A stretch of 64,000 nt of DNA from an uncultured virus (IMG/VR IMGVR_UViG_3300024999_000051) (Duplodnaviria > Heunggongvirae > Uroviricota > Caudoviricetes), in the IMG/VR virus record IMGVR_UViG_3300024999_000051; one strand, given 5' to 3'. Below, piece by piece: positions 31,250-53,001 of this stretch. The translations under genes and the position numbers were made by a program. The notes beneath the pieces are model-generated. The model ran no database searches, had not been told where the DNA came from, and saw only the letters and a program-made list of their open reading frames with translations. Every line of letters begins with the position of its first letter. The first letter of the stretch is position 1.

Positions 31250-31536
31250 AAAGATTCCTCCTTTTTATCAGAAACGTCTCTAATAAAGCAATCGTTGCAA
31301 CCATCAAATAATGGAATCTTTAATTCTTTTGATAATTTATAACATTGAAAAATAGCCTCATCTTTTGATAATCCAGATACTAAAATATTTAAATCTTTTC
31401 CAATTTCATCTCCGAAAGGATTGATACTATAATCTATCCTTTTACCATTTTGAGTGTTGAACGTTTCAATATACCACTTTCTATTGACTTTTTTATTGCT
31501 AGTAAGTGGTGCAAAATAATCCATTTTAAAATTCAT
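31237..31536 (-). CDS. hypothetical protein
   Basis: AGGAGG RBS. Confidence 0.65.
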   Translation of the reverse strand: MNFKMDYFAPLTSNKKVNRKWYIETFNTQNGKRIDYSINPFGDEIGKDLNILVSGLSKDEAIFQCYKLSKELKIPLFDGCNDCFIRDVSDKKEESLCLA

Positions 31537-31558
31537 TTATATACCTCCTATTAATTCA

Positions 31559-31810
31559 TCAATTCTTAATATTCCTGAAATTAACCATAACCTGATATTG
31601 TAAAGGATATCTTCTTTGCATATGACATCCTTCGCCAAAACCAATAAATTTTGAATCCATTTTACCATCTAGCACCAACTGGCAAGAAGTTGTTTTGTCT
31701 TCGTGTTTTATAAGATACTTACAATTTCCCTTTTTCTTCTTGTCAGTTCTTCTTCCTTTTGAACAAAGAGATAGTGAACAACATATCCCACAACGGGTAC
31801 AAGGTTTCAT
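31559..31810 (-). CDS. YkgJ-like cysteine-cluster protein
   Basis: CTRCGICC...CKYL...C. Confidence 0.65.
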   Translation of the reverse strand: MKPCTRCGICCSLSLCSKGRRTDKKKKGNCKYLIKHEDKTTSCQLVLDGKMDSKFIGFGEGCHMQRRYPLQYQVMVNFRNIKN

Positions 31811-31861
31811 GATTAATTCACCTCTGATTCATTATACCATAAGTTACATGTTTTCTAGGAT

Positions 31862-32485
31862 TTAATTTGGTGGAAGTAAAAGACCACTACCATCCTCATC
31901 ATATCCAAGATAATCGTTATCCCAAGGAATATAATCATAACCCTCATCTTCAATTTCTTCATCAGAAACACAATCGTCTCTGTCATAGTAATCATATTCA
32001 AAATCATCTGCAAACTCTTCCATCATTGCTTCTTGTTCGCGATCATAATCTTCATTTCTTGTAAGACTAAATCCTTCAAACCAATCATATCCAATTGAAT
32101 GTATTTTACCATTTTTGTCTAAGCATCTTAGAATATTTACTTCTGGAGCATTACCTATAATAACGTATTTTTTGGTTTTATCAAAAATAGCAGAGGTATG
32201 TTGGAATATCATTTTAGGATTATTCTTTTTGTAGTAGCGCATTAACTTGTTATATTTAGCTTTTAAGTAATCAGGGTCTAATTGTAAATGAGCAATGTCT
32301 GTTGGGAATACTCCTTTTGTTTCAATACTTTGTACTTCTGCAAGAGGGGACGCATTAATTCTTTCTTGGAGTTTTAATACTTTGACTTTCGTTGTTCCAT
32401 TATGAATGCCTGATAATGTATTTAAAACATCCCAATGATAAATTCTTCCTACTTTAATTTCATTAAGTTTGTTATTGATTTTCAT
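31862..32485 (-). CDS. hypothetical protein with acidic tail
   Basis: AAGGAG RBS; D/E/Y-rich C-terminus. Confidence 0.75.
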   Translation of the reverse strand: MKINNKLNEIKVGRIYHWDVLNTLSGIHNGTTKVKVLKLQERINASPLAEVQSIETKGVFPTDIAHLQLDPDYLKAKYNKLMRYYKKNNPKMIFQHTSAIFDKTKKYVIIGNAPEVNILRCLDKNGKIHSIGYDWFEGFSLTRNEDYDREQEAMMEEFADDFEYDYYDRDDCVSDEEIEDEGYDYIPWDNDYLGYDEDGSGLLLPPN

Positions 32486-32534
32486 ATATAAACACTCCTT
32501 TTAATTTTTATTTTTAGCAATTAAAATATCAGCT

Positions 32535-32768
32535 TTAATCTAACCAACCAAACTTTTCTCTTTTCCCCATAATTGATTCATAATTATTTAAAAAATATAA
32601 ACAAGACTCCTTACTTCCTTCAGATAATATCTCAGATGGCTTAGACAATGTTGGAGAAGTCATCATTCCAATATACTTATATTCACCATCCTTATGGTCA
32701 AAGGAATAATTCAATGGTGCTTTATGAGTCGATTTAACTACCACCCAATTTCCTGAACGTTTAGGCAT
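32535..32768 (-). CDS. hypothetical protein
   Basis: AAGGAG RBS. Confidence 0.65.
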   Translation of the reverse strand: MPKRSGNWVVVKSTHKAPLNYSFDHKDGEYKYIGMMTSPTLSKPSEILSEGSKESCLYFLNNYESIMGKREKFGWLD

Positions 32769-32795
32769 ATGTATATTTCTCCTTTTTTAACATTG

Positions 32796-33227
32796 TTATG
32801 CAGACATAACTTCATTAGCAAGAATTAAGTCGATTTGTCTATAATTCTGACTAACAATTACTTTCATCAACTCATCGTCTAACTTTGTAATCTCTGACAC
32901 TACATTTTGTTTATATTTATTTAGCCAATTAATTATCATGTCATAAATTATATCTGTTGATATATTTTCAACATTGTCCAAACTAATTCTATCGATTTGC
33001 CATCTTTTATTTATTTCTTCTCTAAATTTCCTAATGATGATTCGAGCATCAAACCCATTTTCTTTTTTACTGCACCAAATATCAAACCAAAAAGATCCAA
33101 TCTTAATTTCTTGTTTTGCACGAGTTAATGGCATGTGTCTTCCATAACTTCTCGTATAAGAATTACCATATTCCCATTGAATTTTATCATTTGAAATTAA
33201 ATATTTACCGATAATATTTTCTTGCAT
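32796..33227 (-). CDS. hypothetical protein
   Basis: GGAGG RBS. Confidence 0.7.
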   Translation of the reverse strand: MQENIIGKYLISNDKIQWEYGNSYTRSYGRHMPLTRAKQEIKIGSFWFDIWCSKKENGFDARIIIRKFREEINKRWQIDRISLDNVENISTDIIYDMIINWLNKYKQNVVSEITKLDDELMKVIVSQNYRQIDLILANEVMSA

Positions 33228-33310
33228 AATATGTATTCCTCCCAATTAATTATATTTACCTTATTAACAATAGTGTATCATAATCAATAAATAAAATCAA
33301 TAGAAAATAG

Positions 33311-38792: not shown

Positions 38793-39233
38793 TTAAAATG
38801 ATATTTGATCAATCAATGAATGTAGTGTATTTTTACATGTTATAAGTTTTTCATTAGCATCTTTTTCAAACATTAATGTCATTTTCTCATTAAAATGAAT
38901 ATTGTTTTCAAATGATTTGAGTGCTTTAGTAAAATCTTGTGTATATAATTCTACTTCCAATAACTTATATTTAATTTGTTGAAGTATTGATTGCTCTTTT
39001 GATATATAAAGTATAGATTCTAATATTTTTTTCTGTTCATTGATATCCTTAGAAATAAACTGAATTATCTTGTTCAGAACATTATCATCTATTGTTTTAT
39101 AATCTCCTTTCTCTAATTTAGTGACATATGCATTAGACCTTCCAATTTCAGTAGCAATATCCGTGGCAGTAACGTTTTTAGACAACCGGAAATCTTTTAA
39201 TAATTGACAGTTCTTAATGTTTAAATTAATCAT
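38793..39233 (-). CDS. XRE HTH transcriptional regulator
   Basis: LKDFRLSKNVTATDIATEIGRSNAYVTKLEKG. Confidence 0.85.
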   Translation of the reverse strand: MINLNIKNCQLLKDFRLSKNVTATDIATEIGRSNAYVTKLEKGDYKTIDDNVLNKIIQFISKDINEQKKILESILYISKEQSILQQIKYKLLEVELYTQDFTKALKSFENNIHFNEKMTLMFEKDANEKLITCKNTLHSLIDQISF

Positions 39234-39359
39234 AATATGTATACCTCCAATAATTCATTATTTTTTAATCAATGCTCCCATATAAACCCACAATGCCATA
39301 GCCATGACTGTTATACATCCTACTGTTATAGCGACATGGGCTTAAATCACTAGCATAGA

Positions 39360-39551
39360 TTAAACTGTATCTAAATATTTTCTAATCCGTTCATGTCCTT
39401 TATTGATTGTTATACAATCTTCATGAACTATACAATTTACTCCAATGTTTTCAAGTATATCCTCAATATAGTTGGCTTTAGATTTATTAGTACATTGACA
39501 ATAACCTTGAACATATAAATTAGATAGCATTAAAACTGTATTGTTTGACAT
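39360..39551 (-). CDS. hypothetical protein
   Basis: AAGGA RBS. Confidence 0.55.
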   Translation of the reverse strand: MSNNTVLMLSNLYVQGYCQCTNKSKANYIEDILENIGVNCIVHEDCITINKGHERIRKYLDTV

Positions 39552-39584
39552 CTAAACCATTCCTTTCTTTGCTCTAAATAAAAT

Positions 39585-39833
39585 TTACTTTTCCTCTGAT
39601 TCAATAGACCACATATCATAGTTTAAACTTTCCAAAACTGTATCCCTCAGTAAATAATGCTTATATCCATTTATATTGATGTATAAAAGGTCTTTTACTT
39701 CGTCCTTTGATGGATTATCCAATATTGTACTAGTCCATTTAATTTCACCTTTATCTGAGACTGCTTTCATTTCTTGGTTTTTCCATAGAATTTGAATTAC
39801 CTCAAATAAATTTAAATTAGTTAAATATTTCAT
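39585..39833 (-). CDS. hypothetical protein
   Basis: AAGGGTG RBS. Confidence 0.6.
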   Translation of the reverse strand: MKYLTNLNLFEVIQILWKNQEMKAVSDKGEIKWTSTILDNPSKDEVKDLLYININGYKHYLLRDTVLESLNYDMWSIESEEK

Positions 39834-40058
39834 AATTAATCACCCTTTCTAATTCAAACTTGCTTTCATTCGGTTTCGATTAAGACATAACTTTCATCTT
39901 CAATACAAATATCTTCAACTGTTACCAATTTGCCATTTAACATAATTAATACTTCAATTGATAAACTGTCAGCCTCTTCGCACATTTCGTTAACCTTTTT
40001 CCGTAATTCTCTTAAATCCATTTTAAAAACTCCTTTCCGTTAAGTTAATAGTTTGATC

Positions 40059-40508
40059 CTAGACATAAAATCCATGAACGGCATATTCACCTAACTTTAA
40101 CTTTGCTTTCTCCTTGGCATACTCATGAACATCTTCTACATTATCAAAACTTACTGCATAAGTAAAATCTGATCCAACTGGGCAACCATCCCCTTCAACA
40201 CATTTACCATAAATATAATCACCATAGCAATTATCTGTTAGTAAACTAATCATATACCTGTATGATTTACCAAAATCATTTCCGAATAATATCTTGCATT
40301 CTTCATACGAAAAAGGTTCTTCAATAAATACATTGCCATTATCAATAGTAACACAATATTCATTATCATCTAAAGGGAGAACGCATTCTAATTTGTTCTC
40401 TATGATTGCAATATCTCCTACTACAATATCTTGGAATATATTAAAAGACGAATCATGGTTTTTCCAATTGATATCTTTAACATTCACAATAGGTAACTTA
40501 ATTGACAT
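40059..40508 (-). CDS. hypothetical acidic protein
   Basis: 149 aa, AAGGA RBS. Confidence 0.7.
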   Translation of the reverse strand: MSIKLPIVNVKDINWKNHDSSFNIFQDIVVGDIAIIENKLECVLPLDDNEYCVTIDNGNVFIEEPFSYEECKILFGNDFGKSYRYMISLLTDNCYGDYIYGKCVEGDGCPVGSDFTYAVSFDNVEDVHEYAKEKAKLKLGEYAVHGFYV

Positions 40509-40615
40509 TTCTAATTCCTTCTTTCACTTAAATTTAAGCCCATTACAAGGGCTTTAGCATAAATACCTCTGTAACATTTTTAGCGTGTTGTTATATTAAA
40601 TCTGACATATACAAA

Positions 40616-40882
40616 TTATACACTAATTAGTACATTAATTCCAATCTTTTCAACTTGTTTATCAGTAAATAAGTATTCTAGAACTTTCCTTCTATTCTTG
40701 CCATAAGTAAACAGATGCGTCTTAATGAACGCCTTCTGTCCTCTCTTGACTACATAATCTTTCGCTCTCCATCCTTCAAAGGTATTGAGGTTATTGCCAT
40801 TATAATGAAATCCTTTCATTAATGCTTCTTGGGCAATTATTTCTTGATTAGCTTTTTGAATATTGATACTAGTAATTAACAT
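40616..40882 (-). CDS. ArdC-N-like ssDNA-binding domain protein
   Basis: TFxGWxxxxYxVKRGQKA...LFTxxQV. Confidence 0.7.
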   Translation of the reverse strand: MLITSINIQKANQEIIAQEALMKGFHYNGNNLNTFEGWRAKDYVVKRGQKAFIKTHLFTYGKNRRKVLEYLFTDKQVEKIGINVLISV

Positions 40883-40998
40883 TTATACAATCCTCCTTAA
40901 TATTTTGATTAACTTATATCCCTTAATTTTTACATGGCATAATATAGTCTGTTATAAATTATATTCGCATTATACCATGTATCCATAAGTTATACAAA

Positions 40999-41289
40999 TT
41001 AAGCTGCAACTTTTGATTTCTTTGTTTTAGTTTTCTTTTGAGAAGATACTAAAACGATTTCAGACAATGGAAGGATTTTAGTGACCGTCCGGTTATTCCA
41101 TATTTTTAATTTAATTTCTGCATATGGGACAGGATCTAAGTCGGAATAGTAAGCAATATTAATTATTTCTCCCTTGTAAGGTCTTAGGGAGTGCCCTGTG
41201 CCAGTGTAAATAATTTCTTTGCCTAGATATAGGGAGTTTAGAATTGAAGCAGAATGGGTTAAGTTTTTGATGTTTTTAGGTTTTTGCAT
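40999..41289 (-). CDS. hypothetical protein
   Basis: AAGG RBS. Confidence 0.6.
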   Translation of the reverse strand: MQKPKNIKNLTHSASILNSLYLGKEIIYTGTGHSLRPYKGEIINIAYYSDLDPVPYAEIKLKIWNNRTVTKILPLSEIVLVSSQKKTKTKKSKVAA

Positions 41290-41603
41290 TTGATTAACCT
41301 TCTTTCATTAATTTTATTTTAGGATTTAGTGTTAGGTGTTAAGATAGAATATGTAAGTTTATTTAGAAATATGAACAATGAACATATCGAACCCTTGAAA
41401 GGTAAATGGGATTGAATGATTATCGCATAAGGTTTTGTATTCCTTGAGCAGTTTTAAATTTATCGCCATTGTTTTTCCTCCTTTGGTTTTATTTTAGGAA
41501 TATGGTTAAGGTTTACAACCTTTGGTCAACTCTTATATACGATTTGTTATACAAGAATTGAGCAAAGAGCATAAGCTCTTCATAATGGAAGGAAGTGGTA
41601 CTT

Positions 41604-41942
41604 TTATGCTACCTTAGAATATTTACTAAAAAACTTTTCATAATCTGCATACTTTTTATTTTTTGTCCCTAATCCTTTGTTCATAGCCTTTGACATATCC
41701 CTGTCAGCTAAAAAATCAAGATATTCCATAATCCATTTATAATCTTCTATCTCACTGAATCTTTTAACTCCCTTCTGTTTTATAATTTCATTTCTAACGT
41801 CTTGCCAAAATCCATCAAATGATTTTATATATGTTTGCATTTGCTCACAACTCGTAAAACGTGGTAATTGTTCAATGAGATAATCTTTTAATATTTCTCC
41901 ATCACGTTCTGCCTGAAGATAATCAAATTGTAATATTTTCAT
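41604..41942 (-). CDS. hypothetical protein
   Basis: GGAGG RBS. Confidence 0.7.
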   Translation of the reverse strand: MKILQFDYLQAERDGEILKDYLIEQLPRFTSCEQMQTYIKSFDGFWQDVRNEIIKQKGVKRFSEIEDYKWIMEYLDFLADRDMSKAMNKGLGTKNKKYADYEKFFSKYSKVA

Positions 41943-42060
41943 ACATTGTTAACCTCCAATTAATTATTTTAGGCTTTAATTGCCTTTGTAAATATCCCTG
42001 AAGCATATATTTGAATCTGTTATGCTCAAAACAGGACATTTACAAAGGGAATTAATATCC

Positions 42061-42411
42061 CTATGATTGATTAAGTTCTTTTAACCTTGTTTCCATTCTT
42101 GATTTCTCATTTTCAATTTCAAGAATAGCATTGTTATATTTATTAAGTTCATACTGCTTTCTAGTATCAATATGACTCAATCTTTCATTAAGTTCTTTTA
42201 CTTCTCTGTCGATAAAATACTTTGGTTCAGCATAAATCGAATAACCCATACCACCGCCACCACGACTTAGTTTACTGTCTGGAACATCACAAATAACAAC
42301 TTTGTAACCTTTTGATTTATACTCTTTTGCTTGCTCCTTAATGGTGTCTTTATTTCGCTCATAAGAACCTGTATATCTGTATCCCTTTTCCATTGCTTGA
42401 TTTTCTTTCAT
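42061..42411 (-). CDS. hypothetical protein, coiled-coil C-terminus
   Basis: AAGGTGG RBS. Confidence 0.7.
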   Translation of the reverse strand: MKENQAMEKGYRYTGSYERNKDTIKEQAKEYKSKGYKVVICDVPDSKLSRGGGGMGYSIYAEPKYFIDREVKELNERLSHIDTRKQYELNKYNNAILEIENEKSRMETRLKELNQS

Positions 42412-42531
42412 AATTATTCCACCTTTCATTTACTTAATATTTGATCAAAGTCTTTTAAACTCTCCAATCTCTGCAAGTGTGCTATTATGTTGTTATTGCT
42501 AGTTTAGAGGTTTTAAAGGGCTTTGATAGCC

Positions 42532-42765
42532 CTATTTACTCACTAATTTTTCATCAATATCTTTCTGATTTAATTCAGGATGTTCATGTATAATTACTTT
42601 TCCAACTTGTTCCCAATCAACATCAGACAGTGAGAATATTAGACTTCTTAGAATCGCTTCATTCCCTTTGTTGAGTTGTGGAACGATATATTTACTAATA
42701 TAGATTTTTGCTTGCTCTGCGGTCATGGTTAATTCATTAGTCATTTTTAACACACTCCATTTCAA
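42532..42765 (-). CDS. hypothetical protein
   Basis: ORF; likely start MTNE after GGAG. Confidence 0.6.
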   Translation of the reverse strand: MKWSVLKMTNELTMTAEQAKIYISKYIVPQLNKGNEAILRSLIFSLSDVDWEQVGKVIIHEHPELNQKDIDEKLVSK

Positions 42766-43206
42766 TTATTCCCAATCAATTTCAATACATTCACATTTGG
42801 GATTCTCAATCCCTTCAGAAGTCTCCAAATAGTAAAGATAATCTGTTATTGCTTGTTCGCGCGTTACGCCGTTAACTTGCGCTTGATATCCTGAAATAAT
42901 GTTTCCTTTTTTGTCGATTTGATTAAGTTCCCAATTCTTAACCTCATCTTGACAATATTCTTTGTTCACCATGTCGCAAAATTCCTGCAAACTCATTTCT
43001 TGATTTTTACTTTGATAGAATACATTATCGTATGTTATTTGCCCTTCATCTAATATTTGAATTACATGAGTTCCCATAGATACTGCGTTGTATCCTCCAG
43101 AATTTACCCAAACTTCAACTTTCCCTGCAGATTGAACAACATAAATTGCTCCACCATGTTTTAGCAATTCCTTCTTAGCATCTTGGAGTTTTTTGACTGT
43201 CAACAT
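42766..43206 (-). CDS. hypothetical protein
   Basis: 146 aa, AAGGA RBS. Confidence 0.7.
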   Translation of the reverse strand: MLTVKKLQDAKKELLKHGGAIYVVQSAGKVEVWVNSGGYNAVSMGTHVIQILDEGQITYDNVFYQSKNQEMSLQEFCDMVNKEYCQDEVKNWELNQIDKKGNIISGYQAQVNGVTREQAITDYLYYLETSEGIENPKCECIEIDWE

Positions 43207-43300
43207 AATATATTCCTTCTTTCTAATTAATTTTCTGACCTCAAGCCGTAACCCAAAATTGTTATACTTGTTTTTGGATTACGTGGCCTCAATTCAGAAA

Positions 43301-43528
43301 TTAAAACATTCCATCCATGAACCATACGTGATTTACTTTTAACCCACAATCTCTGATAAAATCATTCCAAGTATCATAAATTTTTAAGATACTTTGAGCT
43401 TGCTTAATATCCTTGATGCGTGGGGTTTTGTTATGCTCTGCATGATAATCTAATGCAATTTGCTTATAGATAACTTTTCTTTCCTCAATTTGTTCTGGTG
43501 TTAATGGTTTTCTGCCTCTTTTAGTCAT
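43301..43528 (-). CDS. protein with a homing-endonuclease-associated repeat-like domain
   Basis: HNKTP...YDTWNDFIRDCGL pattern. Confidence 0.55.
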   Translation of the reverse strand: MTKRGRKPLTPEQIEERKVIYKQIALDYHAEHNKTPRIKDIKQAQSILKIYDTWNDFIRDCGLKVNHVWFMDGMF

Positions 43529-43529
43529 G

Positions 43530-43736
43530 TTAGATGTAACACACAAAGCGTTCCATGTCTCCATCTAATGTTAAAACTACTTTGTAAATAATATCGCCTT
43601 GAGAAGTAAATTGACCTGATTCTTTTAGTTCAAGGATTTCTTCAGGGTGGATTTGAATTTCTACTAATGATTCTCTGATATAGTTTTCATCTTCCTCAGT
43701 TACATTTAGATTTTCAATCATTAATTCTTGATTCAT
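43530..43736 (-). CDS. hypothetical acidic protein
   Basis: AAAGGAG RBS. Confidence 0.65.
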   Translation of the reverse strand: MNQELMIENLNVTEEDENYIRESLVEIQIHPEEILELKESGQFTSQGDIIYKVVLTLDGDMERFVCYI

Positions 43737-43780
43737 TTTTAAAACTCCTTTAACCTTGCTCCCTTAGAGCTAACAGGTTT

Positions 43781-43852
43781 ATTTTAGGCAGGACTTGGAA
43801 CACTGCCTTGCACATTACTACAGTTTTTAGGCTGTAGTCCTCTGTTAACAAT
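43781..43852 (-). ncRNA. twister ribozyme candidate (P5-type permutation)
   Basis: ACA-GAG-GA-P1(CUACAG/CUGUAG)-UAA-UGU-GC...P4(GGCAG/CUGCC) with loop UUCCAAGU; P2 and T1 complementary. Confidence 0.6.
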
Positions 43853-44127
43853 TAGTTAAGCTCTAAAATATATGGATTATTGGAGTCATATTCGTCTGAC
43901 CATTCGCTAACATCTTCTGGATCAACATCTTTAATTTTGTCAAATGCTAGAATGTATTGTGATTGCTCTCCATCTTTTTCAAGATGATAATAACTAAGAT
44001 TTAATACTCCATCATCGATATATTCAGGGTCTTGGTTATGATTTACAGTGTAGATTTTACCATTAATTCTGAATGTGTTAGAATCAATTTCCTCGAATTT
44101 TACTTTGCTTGCAATGTAATTGTTCAT
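43852..44127 (-). CDS. hypothetical acidic protein
   Basis: AAGGAAGG RBS. Confidence 0.7.
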   Translation of the reverse strand: MNNYIASKVKFEEIDSNTFRINGKIYTVNHNQDPEYIDDGVLNLSYYHLEKDGEQSQYILAFDKIKDVDPEDVSEWSDEYDSNNPYILELN

Positions 44128-44299
44128 TGTTTTGACCTTCCTTTCTTAATGAATTTTGAAATTCCCTGCTTGAAATTTTGAGTTGTGTTATACAGATTAT
44201 ACCATTTTGGTATTGGAAATGTAAGGTTTAATTGATTGAAAATCCTTTACACCAATATTATATATTATTTTTGTATTAGTGTAAAGCGTTTAGGCATCA

Positions 44300-44530
44300 T
44301 CAAAATAAATTATTTAATGCTCTTTCAATATACCATTTAGGCCACAATTTAGACATCCATTCTTTTCCTACTTCAGCACATTGTAACCTAATTAAATTAC
44401 ATTCAATTGCAATTGGTTTGGCATAGAATCTCATGGTGTGGCCGTTATAGCCATCTGGAAGGGTTATAATTTTTCTTTCAGGTTCTACCACTGAGCAAGT
44501 ACCATCGCTATGTACAGCTAATTTAATCAT
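44300..44530 (-). CDS. hypothetical protein
   Basis: AAGGAG RBS. Confidence 0.65.
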   Translation of the reverse strand: MIKLAVHSDGTCSVVEPERKIITLPDGYNGHTMRFYAKPIAIECNLIRLQCAEVGKEWMSKLWPKWYIERALNNLF

Positions 44531-44699
44531 AAGTTACACTCTCCTTCTAGTTTATCTATTTTGATAAACTCTAAACATCCTGCAATCACTAGATGTGAAC
44601 TGTTATAAAGATTGCAGGATATCTAGGCATTATCAAATAATTATATTAAGGGTATTTTCTAGGGATACCCTCGAACCCTTGTAGTATGACTGTTATAGT

Positions 44700-47153
44700 T
44701 TATACAGCCTTTTGCATGGTCTCAGTGTCTTTATTAATGACAATTATATTTGATCTAACTTGTGTCATCTCAAAAGTTCCTGACTCTAATTCTTCTACAA
44801 TTTCACCATTCAAATTCTCGAACCATTGACGGAATTCTTTTGATGATTTGTCATTGGCAAAAGTCCAATGTGGTGAAGTAATAGCAATGAGTTTCCCGCC
44901 AGTTTTTAGTAAATCATAAGCATGTTTAATATGGGACTGTTCTGTGCTGAATGGGGGATTCATAATGATACTGTCGTAATAATTGTTATTTTCATACTTC
45001 AAGAAGTCAGAACCAACAACATTAAAACCTTTGAGAGTTAATAATTCAGAATAAGAATACATTTGTTCACAGACATCAACATTATCAACAAATTTTTTGA
45101 TTTGGTCTGCAATATTTCCGATTCCGGCTGAAGGTTCTAGAACTCTGCTGTTATGGGATATATCGGCTAATTCAATCATTTGAAGAGCAATATTCGAAGG
45201 AGTAAAAAAGGTATCTCCACCTTGCGTGAATTTTAGGCTTCTTTCCAACTCTTTTATTTTTTGTTGAGTTGGATCAATTGAACTTTTGACAGTGCGATAA
45301 TTGAAGTATTCCCTTAGATATTCCCTTAACTCTTCGACTGATTCTATACCCATTCTTGACAATCTTCTACGCTCCTCAATTGCAGTTTCAAAGTATTGAT
45401 TCTTCAGAACATCAGTATTTTTGTAAATCTTATCAAGTTCAGCATCATAATCTGAAATATCAATTAGTGGGTCATGATGTGGATCTTTTTGTTTTAGTTT
45501 TGCATTGTCAATTAGTTTTTGCAATCTGTTTGCAATAAGTTTGAATCCTTCAGTGTTTCTAATGTCATTGATAATAGATTGAAGTTGACGTAAATAAATA
45601 GTGCTTGAGGGAATCTCTGCGAACCTAATAATGTCTGCTGTTATTGGAGAATTATACCATACATTATAATCAATATTTTCGACTGATTTATATCTCCAGT
45701 TTGCACGATTAAGAATACTTTCCAATGTGTCAACTTGTGCCCTAGAATCAATTCCACCAATGAAAGTCAATTCACCTGATTCAATGGCATTTGCAACATT
45801 GCGTAAAACTCCTTGCATTTGTTCCATTGTATCTGCTTGTTGCTCCTGTCCTGCTGCCTCTCTAGCTCGTTTAGCTGTATTGGTCAATCTGTCTGCTCTT
45901 TTGTTGTCAATTGTGCTTTGCATGTTGTCAGCTACTTTGCGTAGTTTGTCGCTGTTATTGCTAAAATAGGTTTGTTCTGGTTGTTCTCCTTGGTTTTCTT
46001 CAGACTGTTCTCCTAACAATTTAGATGTTGGGTCATACTTGAAAATGTGACCTTTTTTGAATCTTGAATAATAACCGCTAATTAATTTCATTTGTGAATC
46101 ATGAATTCTCCATTCATCTTTACTAAGTGTATTTATGAGTTTTACAACCCATAGAGGAGAATTGTCGCGTGTGTCAACGTCTGCTGTTATAGCGTACATG
46201 TCATTTGATCCGGTAACTGTTGCAAGTGCTTTTTCTTTTCGCTCCTGTTGTTCTTTTTCTCTCTTTTCTTTTTGAGAGATTGAATAAATATGATCAAAAC
46301 GCTGTTGTTCTTCAATGGTCAAATTTTTGTCCTTGCGATAATATTTGACATTCTGGAAATCCTCTAGGGTTTGGGGATTTGTAATCCCTTCAATTAATTC
46401 CTTTCTTTGTACTGTTCTTTCTTCTTTCTCTGCTTTGTTTTTGGTATATTGTGCCTTAATCATTTCATCAGTGGCAGAATTAAGAATCTTTTCTAATGCT
46501 CTTCTTCTTGCTCCTTTAATGTCGTTGAAGTCCATAATGTGAGAAAAAGAATCTTGAACATGATACACAAGAGCTTCTACCATGTTGCCGTAACATTCAT
46601 TAGTTAATTCCGCTTTAGTATTTGCACGTTTCCTTTTATGTTTTTCTGAATTGTTCAGCATGTCAAGGATTACAATTTTTACAGAATCAACATTTTCAAT
46701 TAGGTATGTATAATAGACTCTTAGTTCTTCTGCGGTGCCTTCGCCTGTTTTGAATTTGGTTTGCATTGTATCAAGATAGTTTTTAGTTTCGATTTTTTGA
46801 ACGTCTTGGATTTTATTTTCTGCTTTCGCTCCTAGTGCATTGGTTGCTTCATAGTTTTTATTTAAGTCAATATGTAGGCCATACCATAAATTAGAGTGAA
46901 AATGCAAATGGATTAAAACCAAACCTTTTTCTACTTTGTAGAGTCGAACGTCAATAGAGTCATATTCCTTATTAAACCATTCAACAGGATTTTCGATCAA
47001 AGTCCCTTTGTGGACTTCTCGGCCATCGTAGGAATAGGCAAGTTCAATTTTGTCAAATTCTCCTGCGTTTACGATGTTTTTAATAGTAGTTTTGGAAAGT
47101 CTTTGCGAACCTTTAGCAATGTTGGTTTTTAAAGTTTGAAGAGATTTAGACAT
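44700..47153 (-). CDS. large polyvalent-type protein with C-terminal N6-adenine-type methyltransferase
   Basis: FFTP, VLEPSAGIGNIA, DFL, IIMNPPF, LLKTGGKL; internal GYYSRFKKGHIF..DP domain. Confidence 0.85.
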   Translation of the reverse strand: MSKSLQTLKTNIAKGSQRLSKTTIKNIVNAGEFDKIELAYSYDGREVHKGTLIENPVEWFNKEYDSIDVRLYKVEKGLVLIHLHFHSNLWYGLHIDLNKNYEATNALGAKAENKIQDVQKIETKNYLDTMQTKFKTGEGTAEELRVYYTYLIENVDSVKIVILDMLNNSEKHKRKRANTKAELTNECYGNMVEALVYHVQDSFSHIMDFNDIKGARRRALEKILNSATDEMIKAQYTKNKAEKEERTVQRKELIEGITNPQTLEDFQNVKYYRKDKNLTIEEQQRFDHIYSISQKEKREKEQQERKEKALATVTGSNDMYAITADVDTRDNSPLWVVKLINTLSKDEWRIHDSQMKLISGYYSRFKKGHIFKYDPTSKLLGEQSEENQGEQPEQTYFSNNSDKLRKVADNMQSTIDNKRADRLTNTAKRAREAAGQEQQADTMEQMQGVLRNVANAIESGELTFIGGIDSRAQVDTLESILNRANWRYKSVENIDYNVWYNSPITADIIRFAEIPSSTIYLRQLQSIINDIRNTEGFKLIANRLQKLIDNAKLKQKDPHHDPLIDISDYDAELDKIYKNTDVLKNQYFETAIEERRRLSRMGIESVEELREYLREYFNYRTVKSSIDPTQQKIKELERSLKFTQGGDTFFTPSNIALQMIELADISHNSRVLEPSAGIGNIADQIKKFVDNVDVCEQMYSYSELLTLKGFNVVGSDFLKYENNNYYDSIIMNPPFSTEQSHIKHAYDLLKTGGKLIAITSPHWTFANDKSSKEFRQWFENLNGEIVEELESGTFEMTQVRSNIIVINKDTETMQKAV

Positions 47154-47240
47154 TTTAAAAGCACTTCCTTTCTTAAATCGGCACTAGGCAGGTAACACTT
47201 TTGTTATTGCGTTAACCGCCCACAAGCGACACAAGAAGGG

Positions 47241-47807
47241 TTATATAGAACTTATAAATAGTTCATCGAAATTTTGTTTGTGACTATTCCAATGTATAAG
47301 ACTATACAATTCTGAAAAATTCATGGTTAACATTTTTTCAGTAGGTTTAATAAGAAATCTACTGATTTTTTCAACGTGCCAAGGTTCAAAGAATTTTAAA
47401 AGATTTATTTTGCATGATGTAATAACCTGCAATGTGTTCATTTCCGTTATGTCTAATTCATTTAGAATGTGGCGGTCTGTTTTATTCTCCCTTCCTGCAA
47501 TATGATAAGATTCAATGAAGGAATTGTCAATAATTATTTTATGACTCATAACCTCATTAATTCTTTTTTCAATGTCTGAAAAGTTTTCTTTTCCGTCTTC
47601 CGTTTTTGGATAATCATCTTTATACAATGCGGTTTCAGAATGATTTTCATAGTAAGTTTCGCCATTCCATTTCTTAGGAATTTCCCAACATCCAGTAAGT
47701 TTTAAATATCCCCTTTTATGATCATACTCTGCATAATAGTTTTTCGGCAATCCTTGGAGAATTAATAAACCTGCTGACCCATGACGCTTAAAATGTGTTT
47801 TAATCAT
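47241..47807 (-). CDS. hypothetical protein
   Basis: 188 aa, AAAGGAG RBS. Confidence 0.7.
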   Translation of the reverse strand: MIKTHFKRHGSAGLLILQGLPKNYYAEYDHKRGYLKLTGCWEIPKKWNGETYYENHSETALYKDDYPKTEDGKENFSDIEKRINEVMSHKIIIDNSFIESYHIAGRENKTDRHILNELDITEMNTLQVITSCKINLLKFFEPWHVEKISRFLIKPTEKMLTMNFSELYSLIHWNSHKQNFDELFISSI

Positions 47808-47913
47808 TATGTAACACGCTCCTTTAAATTTTAGTTTAGAGTCTTAAATATTCTCCAAGCCGTAATATTTATATTTACATTATATCACGACTTAGAGAAT
47901 AATTAAAGCTTAT

Positions 47914-47946
47914 AGAGCAAGAAATAAAAATAATTTATCTTGCTCT
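47914..47946. terminator. possible terminator hairpin
   Basis: AGAGCAAGA/TCTTGCTCT. Confidence 0.5.
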
Positions 47947-47974
47947 ATCATATAAAAGTTTGGTTTTATTTGGA

Positions 47975-48280
47975 TTATTGTAATACCCATTCAGAACTGT
48001 AATCTTTTTTGAGGTCTTTATTTAAACCTTCAATTAAAAATGATACAAAGTTAACTTCATTAGAAAAATCTCTTATATCATTTGCTTTGATATACAGAGA
48101 AGGAAAATGTAATTGAAAACTACACATACCTCTTACTGAATTGAAGCTAATCTGTAAATCAAATTTGAAAGGCTGGTTGTAAGGAATATCAAATAATGGA
48201 ATACCATCAAAACTTTTATTGATAATCTCCATTCCTGTTTGGGTTTTGATCTCCATTAACGCTTTGTCGATTTTATTCAT
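47975..48280 (-). CDS. hypothetical protein
   Basis: GAGGAG RBS. Confidence 0.7.
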   Translation of the reverse strand: MNKIDKALMEIKTQTGMEIINKSFDGIPLFDIPYNQPFKFDLQISFNSVRGMCSFQLHFPSLYIKANDIRDFSNEVNFVSFLIEGLNKDLKKDYSSEWVLQ

Positions 48281-48363
48281 TCAAAACACTCTCCTCTTAA
48301 TTTTAGTTTACGGCTAAACACTAAGACATTATACCTAAGTGCTTAGTCTGTACTAAAATTATC

Positions 48364-48564
48364 TTACAAATGTAATTCGTCTATAACTTCTGAAATTGCA
48401 ATTTCTCCCCACCTAATGCAGTGGTTTAAAGTAAAATGTTCTTCATGAAGATCATATACTATTTGCTGTGCTTCTGGGGATAACTCGCTGTGCAATGTCA
48501 CTAGCTCACTAAATTTCCTGTGGATTTCATTTAGAATGTTTTGATCATTGTCATTTGTTTTCAT
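48364..48564 (-). CDS. hypothetical protein
   Basis: AAGGAG RBS. Confidence 0.65.
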   Translation of the reverse strand: MKTNDNDQNILNEIHRKFSELVTLHSELSPEAQQIVYDLHEEHFTLNHCIRWGEIAISEVIDELHL

Positions 48565-49134
48565 AAGTATGCACGCTCCTTTGATTTATTCTAGGCCATT
48601 GTTATAGGTATTGTCCACAATTGCCTTTTAAGTTCATACATTTGATATAGATATTATACTCTATTTTGTACGAACTTAAAAGAGAATTAAGGCTAATTCT
48701 CTAAATAATTATTTTTTAGTTTTAGTTTAGATAATTCCTAATACTTTGATACTGCGCCATCCATATTTCTGCATCTTCTTTAGTTTGAGGTACACCAAAT
48801 AATTTAAAGTCTGCTTGTAAAAATCCGTCTGCATGTAGTTTTTGAATAAATTCTAGTGCCATAAATTTTCCTCCTTTAGTTTAAAGAATGAATATGGTCA
48901 TAAGCTTCAATATAGGTATTAAAATAGGATAGTATTTCTTTAAAATCTTTGTTTTTAGATTCTTGCTCATGCTCCTTTTTTGTTGTAAGAACATATTCTT
49001 TTGAATTGTCGCTGTATACTCTTGTTATTGCAACAAAACAATTATTTGACATAATACTTCACTCCTTTGAATTTTTCCGACTAGACAAAGAACTTTTTAA
49101 TTTTCTTTGTCTAATAATAAAACTCTTTGGAGGA

Positions 49135-50388
49135 TTAAGCAACATTATTGACAATGTTTAGGATAGCTTGGGTTTCTTCTTGGAATTCTTGATCCTGTTC
49201 TTGTTCATCATTGATAGTTTGTTCTAACTGTTCTTCTTGATTTTCTTCGCTGAATGATTCTGGGGTCACTGTTATAGCAGGTTCAAGGTTTTCACTTTGT
49301 TGAGGTTGTTCCCATTGCTCCTCAGTGATTTCCTCTTGTTCCTGTTCAACTTCTTCTGGCTGAATATCTTCAACCAATAATTCTCTTTCCACAACTCCGC
49401 AAATATTCAGCATTCCCTTAACACGACTTTTAACATTTTCCTTTTTGACATTGCCGGAGCCTGTATATTTTTTATATTCGTCTGCAGGAAGTGCTTTAGG
49501 GATATAGGTCAGAAGTTTTTTAGTGGCCTCTGATTTATTGGTAGCATTTGCAAACATATAAGCAAGAACAGGAATATTTATTTTAGCAAGGAATTTTAGA
49601 ATCTTTTTGTCTTCTACATTTTGAAATGCTTCTACAATATCTGTGAATGCCTGTTCAGCAATTGCCAAAACATTAGAATTTATTTCTTTGTTATGGAAAA
49701 ATTCTTCAACATCTTTTGTGGTAAAGCTTGCGAAGTCTTGACCAGAGATTAAAACAATTGCTTGTAAAATTGTCATTTCCCTGTCAGACTTTTTCACAGC
49801 AGTAGCAGAGTATTTTGCAAAATCCTTAAATAATTTGTGTTCATTAATCACTTTTTGGATAAATTCTTGAACGTTTCTCTTTGCTACAACAAATGCAAGA
49901 TGCTCTCTAGAGCATTGTTTGCCATTGTTAAGGCGATAAAATAGGTCTCTGACTATTTCCTCCTCGTCTTCATCTTCTTCAAGCTCTAAAGCCTTAATAC
50001 TGAGTTGACAGGACTTAATTTGGTCTTGTGCTTCAATCGGCAATTCTGAAAACTTTTTACCTGAAATATTAACCATTTCGCCAGTTGTTTCAATTTTGAC
50101 AGACTCTAATGTGGTTAGCGTCCATTCATCCTTTAGAAATGAGGAAAGGATAGTTAGTCTCTGTTTTCCATCAATGGTGTCGTATGTATTGCTGTTATGC
50201 TCATTTTTGGACTGAATGAACCAAATGTCTGGGAGATAGATTCTAAAAAGAGAATCGACTAATAGTGATTTGTTTTCGATTGTCCATTGATCTGCTGGAC
50301 GCTGAAGAGGATTATCAAAAGTTACGGTTCCTTTTTGAATCATGCTGCACACTTGACGAACATTCCAAGGTAAAGATTTCTTTTCCAT
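49135..50388 (-). CDS. DUF262 (GmrS/ParB-like) domain protein with E/Q-rich tail
   Basis: QR...W...KSLLVDSL, IDGKQRLT, FYRLNNGK. Confidence 0.85.
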   Translation of the reverse strand: MEKKSLPWNVRQVCSMIQKGTVTFDNPLQRPADQWTIENKSLLVDSLFRIYLPDIWFIQSKNEHNSNTYDTIDGKQRLTILSSFLKDEWTLTTLESVKIETTGEMVNISGKKFSELPIEAQDQIKSCQLSIKALELEEDEDEEEIVRDLFYRLNNGKQCSREHLAFVVAKRNVQEFIQKVINEHKLFKDFAKYSATAVKKSDREMTILQAIVLISGQDFASFTTKDVEEFFHNKEINSNVLAIAEQAFTDIVEAFQNVEDKKILKFLAKINIPVLAYMFANATNKSEATKKLLTYIPKALPADEYKKYTGSGNVKKENVKSRVKGMLNICGVVERELLVEDIQPEEVEQEQEEITEEQWEQPQQSENLEPAITVTPESFSEENQEEQLEQTINDEQEQDQEFQEETQAILNIVNNVA

Positions 50389-50422
50389 TTTTACAACACT
50401 CCTTTAAATTAATTCCTTTTCT

Positions 50423-50504
50423 AATTAACCTGCCATCTTCAGTATGTAGCGGTTAACCTACATAGACAAGGGATTATTTTGTTTCCCTTGTTTCGGCTTT
50501 AATT
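50423..50504 (-). ncRNA. type II hammerhead ribozyme
   Basis: GCC-GAAA-CAAGGGA/UCCCUUG-UC-UAUGUAG/CUACAUA-CUGAAGA-U-GGC; GUC triplet at 50467-50465. Confidence 0.88.
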
Positions 50505-50514
50505 AATTATACAA

Positions 50515-51168
50515 TCATACCAATACCGCATCCTTTCTAGGTTTAAGATATTGTTTATAATCTTCAGTGCACCATTTTATTATTTTATTATATCTTGATT
50601 TTGTAAAATTGGGGTTATGTATATTATACCACTCCTCAAATATTGCAGTATGTTTTGAACTATTACAACTTTTACATGCAGGGATACAATTTTCTAAACC
50701 ATTACTACCATCATGTATTTTATGTTCTTTGTGAAAATCTCCTAAAATCATTTTACCTGCATACTGTACCCAATGATCTTCTAATGGCATTCCACAGTAA
50801 GCACATTTATAATTAAAATATTTTTTACATGCTTCCCATTCTTTTTCAGATATATCATGATTGTCATGTTGTTGGCTGTATCCTTGACATTTATCAGGAT
50901 TATTTCTTTGCCAACCCAAATAATAACCAGACTTTCTTTGTTTTACACCTTCTTCGAACCTAAATTTAATTCTCTTTTCTGTTTTTGCATATTCAATTTT
51001 TTGTTTTGCATAGGATTCTGGATTGTCTTTCATCCATTTTATACTTCTATTTCCTACACATTTTTTACATTCGCGCCTATAATAGATAGTGCCATCTTTT
51101 CTGAATTGAGAATAATATTCTGATAGTTCTTTATCTTGTTCGCAAGTTGGGCAAATTTTAGATTCCAA
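50515..51168 (-). CDS. HNH endonuclease
   Basis: N-terminal CxxC..CxxC; CAYCG...HKEH...NCIPACKSCNSSK. Confidence 0.85.
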   Translation of the reverse strand: MESKICPTCEQDKELSEYYSQFRKDGTIYYRRECKKCVGNRSIKWMKDNPESYAKQKIEYAKTEKRIKFRFEEGVKQRKSGYYLGWQRNNPDKCQGYSQQHDNHDISEKEWEACKKYFNYKCAYCGMPLEDHWVQYAGKMILGDFHKEHKIHDGSNGLENCIPACKSCNSSKHTAIFEEWYNIHNPNFTKSRYNKIIKWCTEDYKQYLKPRKDAVLV

Positions 51169-51394
51169 TTAATTATTTCCTTCTTTCTTTGTTATTTTAT
51201 TTACTTATTTAGTGTTTATCTCTACCCTCCTTAACTTAATTTAGAGCATATGCTCTATACCATTATAATACTTCGTGCGAACAAAATCAAATAAATTTAT
51301 TTTGGTATTTAGTCTACGAATATACACTAAGATTTGTTATAACCTCAGTGTATAATGCTAAACTAAAATCCATTTAAATGTCTTTTTTATTGGG

Positions 51395-51655
51395 TTAGGT
51401 TATTGAGGTAATATCCCACGAATAAACTTGAATTCTTTTCCCTTCTGCGGTCACTAGATTATAAACGATTGCGTCAGATTGATGACTAAAAAATACATGA
51501 AGACATTTTCCTTCTACTGGAGTAGATTCCCATGTCCTTAAATTAACTTTATTTGCTTTGACATATTTCCCAATGTTTTGTTTTTGGTGGTTTGCGCTCT
51601 CATTCATTGCGTTATCAATTGCTGCATTTTTACTTGCCATTGAAGAAAAATCCAT
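51395..51655 (-). CDS. hypothetical protein
   Basis: AAGGAG RBS. Confidence 0.65.
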   Translation of the reverse strand: MDFSSMASKNAAIDNAMNESANHQKQNIGKYVKANKVNLRTWESTPVEGKCLHVFFSHQSDAIVYNLVTAEGKRIQVYSWDITSIT

Positions 51656-51739
51656 TTAATCCAACTCCTTTTAAGTTTTCACGCAAACACGCTATGCATT
51701 GTTATTATCACAGCGCATTAATTCAAAAACTTTTTAGGA

Positions 51740-51994
51740 TTATAAAATAACTCCAATTTGGCATACTTGATATGTTACACGTAAATTTTCATGTAAATTT
51801 AATGCTTCAAGCCACATTGTAGGATCAATGTCTTTTTCTTGACATTTTTTAATATTTCTTCTAAATACATTTGATTCGTCTTGATTCAAGCATGATTCCA
51901 TTTGAGATTCTGCGAACTCCTTAGTACCAGTGGTAGCCTGTTGAATATCCATTTTACCAGTGTTAAAAACCTTGACAATTGCATACATATTCAT
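51740..51994 (-). CDS. hypothetical protein, first gene after the long leader
   Basis: AGAGG RBS before MNMYA. Confidence 0.65.
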   Translation of the reverse strand: MNMYAIVKVFNTGKMDIQQATTGTKEFAESQMESCLNQDESNVFRRNIKKCQEKDIDPTMWLEALNLHENLRVTYQVCQIGVIL

Positions 51995-52014
51995 AATTCT
52001 AACCTCTTTCATTC

Positions 52015-52885
52015 TTAATTTTGCCCAAGGTCTAAACTCATTTGTTATAAGTTCACACCTTAAGTTTAATTAATCCCTTCAGCCTGTAGTATAGATAATT
52101 TAACCACTAACCATTACCACAAGCCAGTTATAACGCTCACACAATTAAAGTTAAGTTATGTTAAACCTTAATATTAGATAATTCAGTTTTGGTTGCAATA
52201 ACCTCCGGTGAATTATCTAAAAGATTAAAGTAAATGATAATTAACTATACGACCATGTGATTGTTATTGATAGGCAAGCAATTTACACTTCACTATTTTA
52301 CTAAGTCCGTAGAAATAATAAGCAAGTGTTATGCAAATATAGTGCAATTGTTATGATTAAATTGTAATAATGATAGAGTGAAGGGATTTGGTAGAATGTT
52401 TATCCTTTCCTCTATCCTTTATAAATTCTAACATATTTTGTATTCCGTGTATCTCTATTTTCTTTTGGCGGTCATGAATCATCATTCGATCATGGGAAGC
52501 TTTCAAGAAAATTTTAATATAGAGGGAATATCCCATATGCTAGAATTTAGAAGGGATAGAGAATTGGATAAATGAAAGAGAGATTTATACTAGCCCATAT
52601 CGCACTCGAATTTTTTACCACGTTCTTGATTATAACCCTCAGAGGATATTCTAAAAGAATACTCTAATGTATGTTATTTGACAAGTGTTGGCTGGCTAGC
52701 CTCTTAATTCAATTTTCAAAGAACGTCTCAACTCTTTTTCAAGAATTCGCACTAGGTTGTTTTCCTAGTCACGCCACAAGATACTTTGTGGTTGTTGGCC
52801 CTCCTTATGTATATTATTTTTAGGTTCAAGTGAACATTTGACTTTGCTAGTGGTTCAAGAGGTTGTTGTTTGTTTCCCTCTTATG
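52015..52885 (-). ncRNA. ~0.9-kb structured non-coding leader RNA
   Basis: No ORF of 60 aa or more; many hairpins including a ~175-nt rod (52399-52572); boxA; repeated AUAAC(A). Confidence 0.65.
52713..52724 (-). promoter_or_regulatory. rrn-type boxA antitermination motif
   Basis: GTTCTTTGAAAA on minus strand, after three short hairpins, ~160 nt from the predicted TSS. Confidence 0.7.
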
Positions 52886-52891
52886 TTCCCT

Positions 52892-52920
52892 ATTTTATAT
52901 TAATGAACTAAATAAGTCAA
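52892..52920 (-). promoter_or_regulatory. sigmaA-type promoter of the leader
   Basis: TTGACT-N17-TAAAAT. Confidence 0.7.
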
Positions 52921-53001
52921 GGAAAACTTTTATATATTACTTGTTTATGGAGTCCTATTTTATTGTAGATATTTTATAAACAATTTAAAACTTCTGAAGA
53001 C

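Follow-up and report, generated by a model that had tools for sequence, protein, structure and literature searches.

A predicted type II hammerhead ribozyme among the gene leaders of a variable early operon in a probable SPbeta-like phage

In the window, by which we mean the whole 64,000-nucleotide stretch of uncultured-virus DNA that was analysed, the gap between an HNH endonuclease gene and a DUF262 gene holds what is, judged by its sequence, a real type II hammerhead ribozyme (50497-50425, minus strand), for which self-cleavage is predicted. We propose, with a probability of roughly 0.6, that this ribozyme is active and belongs to a set of gene leaders that replace one another in an SPbeta-like phage's variable early operon, where it would cut a long mRNA into gene-sized pieces. 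Its fold, its family, its position, its mobility and the sharing of its slot with other leaders are observed.

A type II hammerhead ahead of the DUF262 gene

The ribozyme is made up of the following elements, to which we add a neighbouring arm that could interfere with it:

50425-50497, minus strand: type II hammerhead ribozyme including its pseudoknot tail (sequence, fold, own covariance model)
50495-50497, minus strand: 5' arm of stem II, GCC, pairing with GGC at 50434-50432 (invariant in 34 of 34 relatives)
50494-50492, minus strand: GAA core strand (sequence)
50466-50491, minus strand: stem III, 8 bp including A15.1-U16.1 (50491-50484 with 50473-50466; sequence)
50464-50465, minus strand: predicted scissile bond after GUC, C17 being 50465 (hammerhead rule)
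50443-50464, minus strand: stem I, 7 bp (50464-50458 with 50449-50443), with loop I at 50457-50450 (sequence, fold)
50435-50442, minus strand: CUGAAGA core (50442-50436) and inserted U (50435)
50425-50430, minus strand: pseudoknot tail GGUUAA, pairing with loop I at 50456-50451 (family covariation)
50501-50509, minus strand: AU-only arm, not conserved, able to compete for the pseudoknot tail (minimum free energy fold, duplex energies)

The core is complete, with CUGAAGA at 50442-50436, GAAA at 50494-50491 and the NUH triplet GUC at 50467-50465 next to the A15.1-U16.1 pair, and it is surrounded by three helices, of which stem II is closed by G10.1-C11.1. Stem I and stem III are closed and stem II is open, which is the type II topology. 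The minimum free energy fold is a three-way junction (z -3.9, equalled by 0 of 200 shuffles), the core alone gives z -3.0 (2 of 200 shuffles equal), and the stem II arm has a predicted pair probability of 0.98-0.99. This is the sole descriptor match of any topology within the 64-kb window, and when the window was copied 150 times by an order-3 Markov model, the scan turned up 26 loose matches but none with equally long stems, which excludes a chance origin. In hammerheads the scissile bond lies directly 3' of the last base of the NUH triplet, here GUC, and the 3' product is predicted to start with a 5'-OH at 50464, 76 nt ahead of the DUF262 ATG. The sequence-only reading had placed a type II hammerhead between the HNH and DUF262 genes, and every element stands on the minus strand where it was put; the cut at 50465|50464 and the 76-nt DUF262 leader hold as well on sequence, fold and covariance model. 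Loop III (50483-50474) is 10 nt long and A-rich, and promoter-like sites near the ribozyme occur at chance level (20 vs 15.3, sd 3.7).

To place this copy in a family, we scanned viral contigs with a pattern and obtained at least 119 loci with 122 distinct matches, 102 of which had both stem III and stem I, and the remaining 20 were set aside. Among the matches listed, the base inserted after CUGANGA is U in 97 of the 102 folding matches, a figure that applies to forms with one inserted base, since the pattern fixed one and the frequency of insertion-free forms lies outside its reach; the base 3' of GGC is A in 93 of 102. The extra base, taken at first for a variant, is thus present but is no rarity, and we found no mention of a base after A9 in the sections of PMC3088659 that were consulted. 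One 112-kb record (L027-L033) has a type II hammerhead in each gene gap along about 10 kb, at least 12 altogether.

The 3' tail and loop I can form at least 4 bp in 79 of 102 relatives, against a mean of 36 and a maximum of 48 in 1000 shuffles, and in a 34-sequence alignment this pseudoknot is 90% paired, with 4 of its 5 pairs changed on both sides. In the window copy the family register gives a pseudoknot of 6 bp (50456-50451 with 50430-50425). The AAUUAA/UUAAUU extension of stem II that had been read from the sequence is there, but it uses the same tail as the pseudoknot, and it is the pseudoknot that is conserved: as a family feature, the stem II extension was rejected, with a mean of 2.27 bp against 2.34 in shuffles, and it is missing in the related copy at L127. 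The partner of the tail in the window hammerhead is most likely loop I, not the AU arm that would lengthen stem II. The duplex energies are -4.1 kcal/mol for the pseudoknot and -3.3/-3.4 kcal/mol for the AU-arm extension, so that the AU arm may compete for the tail in this copy. For type II hammerheads a pseudoknot is reported and described as needed for fast cleavage (Perreault et al. 2011, PMC3088659). In one subgroup of hammerheads (L010, L025, L035, L036, L077, L084, L094) loop I is tiny and the tail is complementary to the CUGACG core as well as to an upstream CUGAC, which could give an alternative fold.

The check proposed with the sequence-only reading, a search with the Rfam Hammerhead_II model, did not bear it out, as the window gave no hammerhead match at gathering (37 bits) or E-value thresholds. 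Yet 16 of 20 signature-bearing loci that were scanned match that model (RF02276), and a covariance model that was trained on 34 phage relatives (many of which match RF02276) and not on the window scores the window copy at 60.6 bits (E 3.7e-15). The window copy is the most AU-rich member, with 42% GC against a family minimum of 53%, which is probably why Rfam misses it. It shares with RF02276 ribozymes the opening in stem II, a short stem II, the pseudoknot between loop I and the 3' tail, and an intergenic place among small phage genes directly ahead of a Shine-Dalgarno (SD) sequence, and differs in its AU-rich stems and 10-nt loop III, which probably bring it below Rfam detection. By sequence, this copy is in itself a new example of a common, RF02276-like kind of phage ribozyme.

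Interchangeable leaders in the DUF262 slot and along the operon

The surroundings of the ribozyme contain these features:

49135-50388, minus strand: DUF262/GmrSD_N-domain gene, 417 aa (Pfam PF03235)
50399-50419, minus strand: junction at which the leftover SD of the ribozyme module (50419-50414) is joined to the end of the DUF262 leader and its SD (50405-50399) (comparison with L127 and type A leaders)
50515-51168, minus strand: HNH endonuclease gene, 217 aa, an optional module in relatives (homologue comparison)
43789-43846, minus strand: twister type P5 ribozyme between two small genes (Rfam scan, 32.7 bits)
40900-52100, minus strand: long intergenic hairpins, most with an AUAACA(A/G) loop, ahead of the SD of successive genes (gap folding)
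52892-52920, minus strand: promoter-like site TTGACT-17-TAAAAT (by eye)
39000-53000, minus strand: region dense in oriented ATAACA, with 35 copies on the operon strand and 1 on the other (hexamer counts)

The source of the window is most likely an SPbeta-like phage whose host is an anaerobic Firmicute, given the gene content of a complete relative (MrpR, DndB, DnaE, HU, PhoH, NrdD and AgrB, together with homologues of SPbeta yonO, yonF, yopQ and yopR) and a 53% relative in a Clostridium metagenome-assembled genome that was found by the DUF262 alignment query; a single-protein DUF262 query of the viral and genome collections had given no match. Features of the SPbeta-like phages (PMC10516654 and bioRxiv 2023.04.27.537455) are MrpR, a DndB-like YopQ, YonO and an enrichment of MazF sites; the related records share gene homologues with these phages and have a variable operon in matching position. 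No similar DNA was found among annotated phages.

The DUF262 family occurs in all 14 records compared, and relatives of the gene are encoded at 19 metagenome loci, 17 of them at 77-96% identity. At none of these 17 close loci does the ribozyme stand directly upstream of DUF262; at all 17 the slot holds a long hairpin that ends at a similar SD (by eye, 11 of type A, 5 of type B and 1 of type C), while the upstream gene differs in most of them. Very few assemblies supplied the 17 loci, and some are duplicates of one another (L121/L122, L127/L129, L132/L133), so that they are not independent. In contrast to what is known of RF02276 hammerheads, non-catalytic hairpins thus hold the orthologous slot. 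The same ribozyme was found at L127 and L129, with identical core and pseudoknot and a different loop III only (there AUAACAUUAAG, which contains AUAACA), and there it lies between two unrelated genes, with its own SD, ahead of a 126-aa gene that is followed by a type A hairpin and then by DUF262. By sequence comparison, the hammerhead is tied to neither of its neighbour genes. It seems that a deletion or recombination took away the usual hairpin and so brought the window copy next to DUF262: the window joins the SD stub of the ribozyme to the end of the DUF262 leader, as such an event would. Among records at a greater distance, several DUF262 genes have leaders without any hairpin or ribozyme element, so that processing is not essential for this gene.

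The slot is one of many. A one-strand run of small genes is headed, by eye, by the promoter-like site and a long non-coding leader, a terminator-like palindrome (53045-52995) precedes that site, and 52920-52892 is the probable, putative start of the operon. From about 52100 to 40900 there are 16 gaps longer than 35 nt and each folds, by eye, as a hairpin or ribozyme; some of the hairpins overlap promoter-like words. In relatives, 174 intergenic gaps fall into 91 clusters, and many leader families recur ahead of different genes, the type A hairpin travelling with its downstream gene. It is on the coding strand that the hairpins fold (blind scoring gave 69 G-U and 19 A-C), and they are 17-34 bp long in 37 families; a conserved TCG word in their 3' arms was considered and dropped (11 of 37 vs 8.0 expected, not enriched). 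The window twister-P5 (E 0.0012) is under the gathering score of 37.6, and homologous modules in relatives exceed it. Among 21 related virus records pistol occurs in 11 (10 above cut-off), twister-P5 in 4 and three twister-sisters in a single one (G021), and twister-P1, twister-P3 and Hammerhead_3 were found in 0 of the 21, with the controls silent. Hammerheads of types I and II were found in addition, and leader slots in related records hold hammerhead I/II, twister-P5, pistol and twister-sister ribozymes.

Several other features of the operon were noted. About 660 nt of non-coding leader (window ~53050-52390, minus strand) are 92% identical in G004, with a 313-nt part in G001, are better conserved than the surrounding genes and have no Rfam match. 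Antitermination through a boxA-like word near 52723 is unsupported, the word being kept only in L130 among the exact-pattern matches. A junction word, TAACCC...AAAAGACATTT, recurs after stop codons (window 51400-51372, minus strand, and L123, L126, L128, L132) and precedes different leaders. The operon also encodes an 817-aa protein with a C-terminal N6-methyltransferase domain (44700-47153, minus strand), with homologues in G009 and G010, and a skipping-rope RNA lies beside a tRNA in the relative G001 (L141, 9994-10073, minus strand).

A proposed role in cutting the early mRNA

We hypothesise that the operon is transcribed as one polycistronic mRNA of about 12 kb and that the ribozyme cuts it after C50465 during transcription. 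The last part of the HNH-side piece would be the stem III hairpin, carrying a 2',3'-cyclic phosphate, and the DUF262 mRNA would start at a base-paired 5'-OH end, 76 nt ahead of the ATG. The outcome would be gene-sized mRNAs, and in sister phages host RNase III probably cuts the long hairpins of the same slot; the cut would probably be constitutive and specific to neither HNH nor DUF262. Precedents for parts of this scheme exist: prophage type II hammerheads cleave and were proposed to yield gene-sized mRNAs, and hammerhead clusters flank single prophage genes, according to the sections of PMC3088659 that treat them, and type II hammerheads near phage-like genes are reported in PMC8782182 to cleave in vivo in D. 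vulgaris. A review describes the processing of polycistronic transcripts by phage ribozymes as suggested, not established (PMC6765202).

The equivalence of hairpin and ribozyme is likewise what we infer, in the case of RNase III from the shape of the hairpins and by analogy. They are long duplexes on the transcribed strand, as RNase III sites are. Their 17-34 bp fall within the 10-36 bp given for B. subtilis RNase III duplexes. The T7 early region is a precedent for RNase III processing of phage early mRNA. The RNase III sites in early mRNA of the B. subtilis phage SP82, as cited in PMC4838370, are likewise long imperfect coding-strand hairpins between early genes, near the next SD. In contrast to the SP82 and T7 sites, the hairpins here alternate with ribozymes, share the AUAACA loop and are candidate processing sites. 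With the DUF1874 motif and attC-like structures (discussed in PMC5737381) they have in common that a structured element stands in consecutive gaps of a shuffled gene array, but here there are many unrelated stems with one loop word and ribozymes mixed in, and Rfam gave no match to the DUF1874 motif.

The cut could also serve to lower or to switch expression. The 5'-OH product might be degraded, as in glmS (precedent described in PMC6765202), which would damp DUF262; or a ribosome at the HNH stop codon (50517-50515) might mask the AU arm (50509-50501) so that the pseudoknot forms, and cutting would then depend on upstream translation. The competing arm does appear in the nested minimum free energy fold, close in energy to the pseudoknot, the upstream stop codon at L127 abuts stem II, and a nested model predicts that the SD opens after the cut (GGAG unpaired at ~0.7 vs 0.15-0.4). 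The arm is not conserved, however, no ligand domain is present, and the 3' product is base-paired from its first nucleotide. By the rules of RNase J1 a base-paired 5' start should protect an RNA, and the 3' product should therefore be protected. We consider damping or switching unlikely, if the best placed of the alternatives to mRNA cutting by interchangeable leaders.

The leader mosaic itself raises a slightly less probable alternative, in which recombination at microhomologies of SDs and stop codons shuffles the leaders, hairpins work at the DNA level as attC-like or recombination sites and the cut has no selected effect. The mosaic is indeed cassette-like, with breakpoints at stop codons and SDs, a related hammerhead at L179 looks decayed, the shared loop word behaves as a signal of DNA orientation, and motifs of consecutive gaps have been likened to attC (in the portion of PMC5737381 concerned). 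Integron attC elements have RYYYAAC...GTTRRRY cores, cross over at their far end and move together with the upstream gene. By eye, many elements begin at a TAAC stop junction, but a closing GTT core was not seen, and neither were chimeric hairpin arms or the attC GTT crossover pattern. Ribozymes of four classes occupy the slot repeatedly and have intact cores, and the window and L127 differ in loop III while sharing the same core and pseudoknot, which argues against a cut that selection ignores.

The sequence-only reading had the cut uncouple DUF262 from the HNH mRNA. Such uncoupling is mechanically expected of any cut at this place, but it is not specific to the pair, and control directed at separating DUF262 from the nuclease mRNA is improbable. 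The ribozyme does lie between both genes with no terminator-like site between them, and contig joints exist that skip the stretch of HNH plus ribozyme; yet the identical ribozyme type flanks other genes at L127/L129, at L135 an HNH gene reaches DUF262 through a plain hairpin, and HNH homologues elsewhere have different downstream elements. Least probable of all is a misfolded or inactive relic, a reading suggested by the AU-rich stems, the 3-bp stem II, the competing arm, a centroid fold of the core that lacks stem II and the 4 of 18 consensus hammerheads that were inactive when assayed by Perreault et al. (PMC3088659), but contradicted by an unchanged core, perfect stems, an available full 6-bp pseudoknot and a sequence identical in the assembly of another study (run X6, 50373-50551, 0 differences).

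An oriented hexamer in the operon and its possible reader

The homologues of the window hammerhead carry a clade-specific word in loop III, which would be a separate layer of information, an oriented signal packed wherever the sequence is free. In the hairpin loops of L120-L138, the coding strand has 83 distinct cases of AUAACA(A/G) and the other strand 2, which puts the word at the top of 30 permutations. Counted by eye, 16 of 32 distinct clade ribozymes have the word in a free loop (hammerhead 6 of 8; twister-P5 5 of 9, one AUAACG included; pistol 4 of 12; twister-sister 1 of 3), against 0 of 102 unrelated hammerheads. Looser collection scans for a hammerhead with ATAACA or with a control word gave, among the matches listed, 0 of 119 and 0 of 118 that fold as hammerheads, which says nothing for or against this association. 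Both window ribozymes are without the word and, by sequence comparison, the window hammerhead is a copy that has lost it from loop III. The word also fills coding sequence, and ATAACA or TAACAG is among the top three over-represented operon hexamers in 11 of 14 records. The loops are the part of each leader that is free of constraint, and probably carry the word for that reason.

We compared its strand bias with a synonymous-codon shuffle in nine pooled records that were picked for strong signal and are related, so that the counts are not independent; G005, G006, G007, G013 and G018 were left outside the pool, and G018 is without depletion. Observed and expected counts of ATAACA were 164 and 47 in operon genes, 57 and 122 in other same-strand genes and 37 and 108 antisense to opposite-strand genes, and on the other DNA strand the word was neutral (175/186 and 132/130). 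Among the 4096 hexamers it comes first in operon enrichment and also in orientation-specific avoidance elsewhere; the operon limits were drawn by eye from motif density, which inflates the enrichment and not the avoidance outside. The bias therefore follows the DNA strand whatever the gene direction, as an oriented signal would. Variants of the word exist (GTAACA/TAACAG in G013, GAACAG in G007, a Brevibacillus prophage), and in G001 a G-poor, C/A-rich strand at 31300-33250 (L142), near the divergence of late and early genes, holds 17 further copies. A search of the literature, in RNA spelling, for AUAACA with hairpin and phage gave nothing relevant by title or abstract among the matches listed.

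A second hexamer served as internal control for the strand test. TACATA, described in the literature as the EndoA site, has rank 1 of 4096 in mRNA-sense enrichment, heads the mRNA-sense hexamers outside the operon and is enriched on mRNA-sense strands in SPbeta as in the clade; UACAU is reported to be enriched in phi3T/SPbeta transcripts. A MazF target should show a bias that follows mRNA sense, and TACATA does so while ATAACA does not. SPbeta itself lacks the ATAACA block, and no equivalent oriented word stood out in it; SPBRE, a 15-bp repressor site, is distinct from the hexamer. In difference from SPbeta, 10 of 13 clade records encode their own MazF-like proteins. MazF/EndoA-like genes lie between the early operon and mrpR (G001 114-119 kb, G002 6.8-9.8 and 155.9 kb, G004 105-110 kb, and G005, G006, G007, G008, G013, G016 and G021), and in some cases have a long N-terminal extension.

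As to what reads the word, we come close to an even bet on a process that tracks along DNA, such as entry, packaging, replication or Chi-like recombination. A loading site for a transcription complex is a possible but clearly weaker candidate, another role is unlikely, and a target of an RNase or RNA-binding protein is the least likely of these. That the word is cut by the phage's MazF-like RNase was rejected, as its bias is not mRNA-sense and it occurs also in MrpR/DndB genes; so was a tag left 5' of the cut, since the G021 twister-sisters carry AUAACA 3' of it. An ArdC-N-like protein of 88 aa (window 40882-40616, minus strand, within or beside the operon; the family binds single-stranded DNA) was considered as reader and dropped, being encoded in 8 of 14 records and absent from the word-bearing G005, G008 and G013. 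Chi and KOPS/SRS are oriented short DNA signals. ATAACA is likewise short, asymmetric, biased in orientation and under genome-wide selection, but is confined to one block of 12-20 kb and avoided in that orientation elsewhere. A combined reading, which we hold tentatively and with the odds against it, is that in a clade of SPbeta-like phages with anaerobic Firmicute hosts a shuffled library of leaders (five ribozyme architectures and some 20-35 hairpin families, interchangeable) goes with an oriented hexamer that would be an undescribed one-way signal read by a DNA-tracking protein (which might also act in a Chi-like recombination that drives the shuffling of genes) or by the transcription complex, the ribozymes being stand-ins for RNase III.

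These observations bear on low-GC phages generally, in which Rfam overlooks AU-rich hammerheads and twisters, so that ribozyme counts are underestimated. Why phages retain self-cleaving ribozymes between small early genes is called open in the review that treats them (PMC6765202, in the part concerned), and the DUF262 slot, where the same SD and gene stand behind a hammerhead in one phage and behind a plain hairpin in sister phages, amounts to a swap experiment done by nature, which could be rebuilt in a laboratory Firmicute to test the ribozyme as substitute for RNase III. If the combined reading is true, the swap shows directly that phage ribozymes take the place of RNase III sites independently of the host. 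As a statistical signal the oriented hexamer is strong and controlled, and it may indicate a step in the SPbeta-like phage life cycle that has yet to be described.
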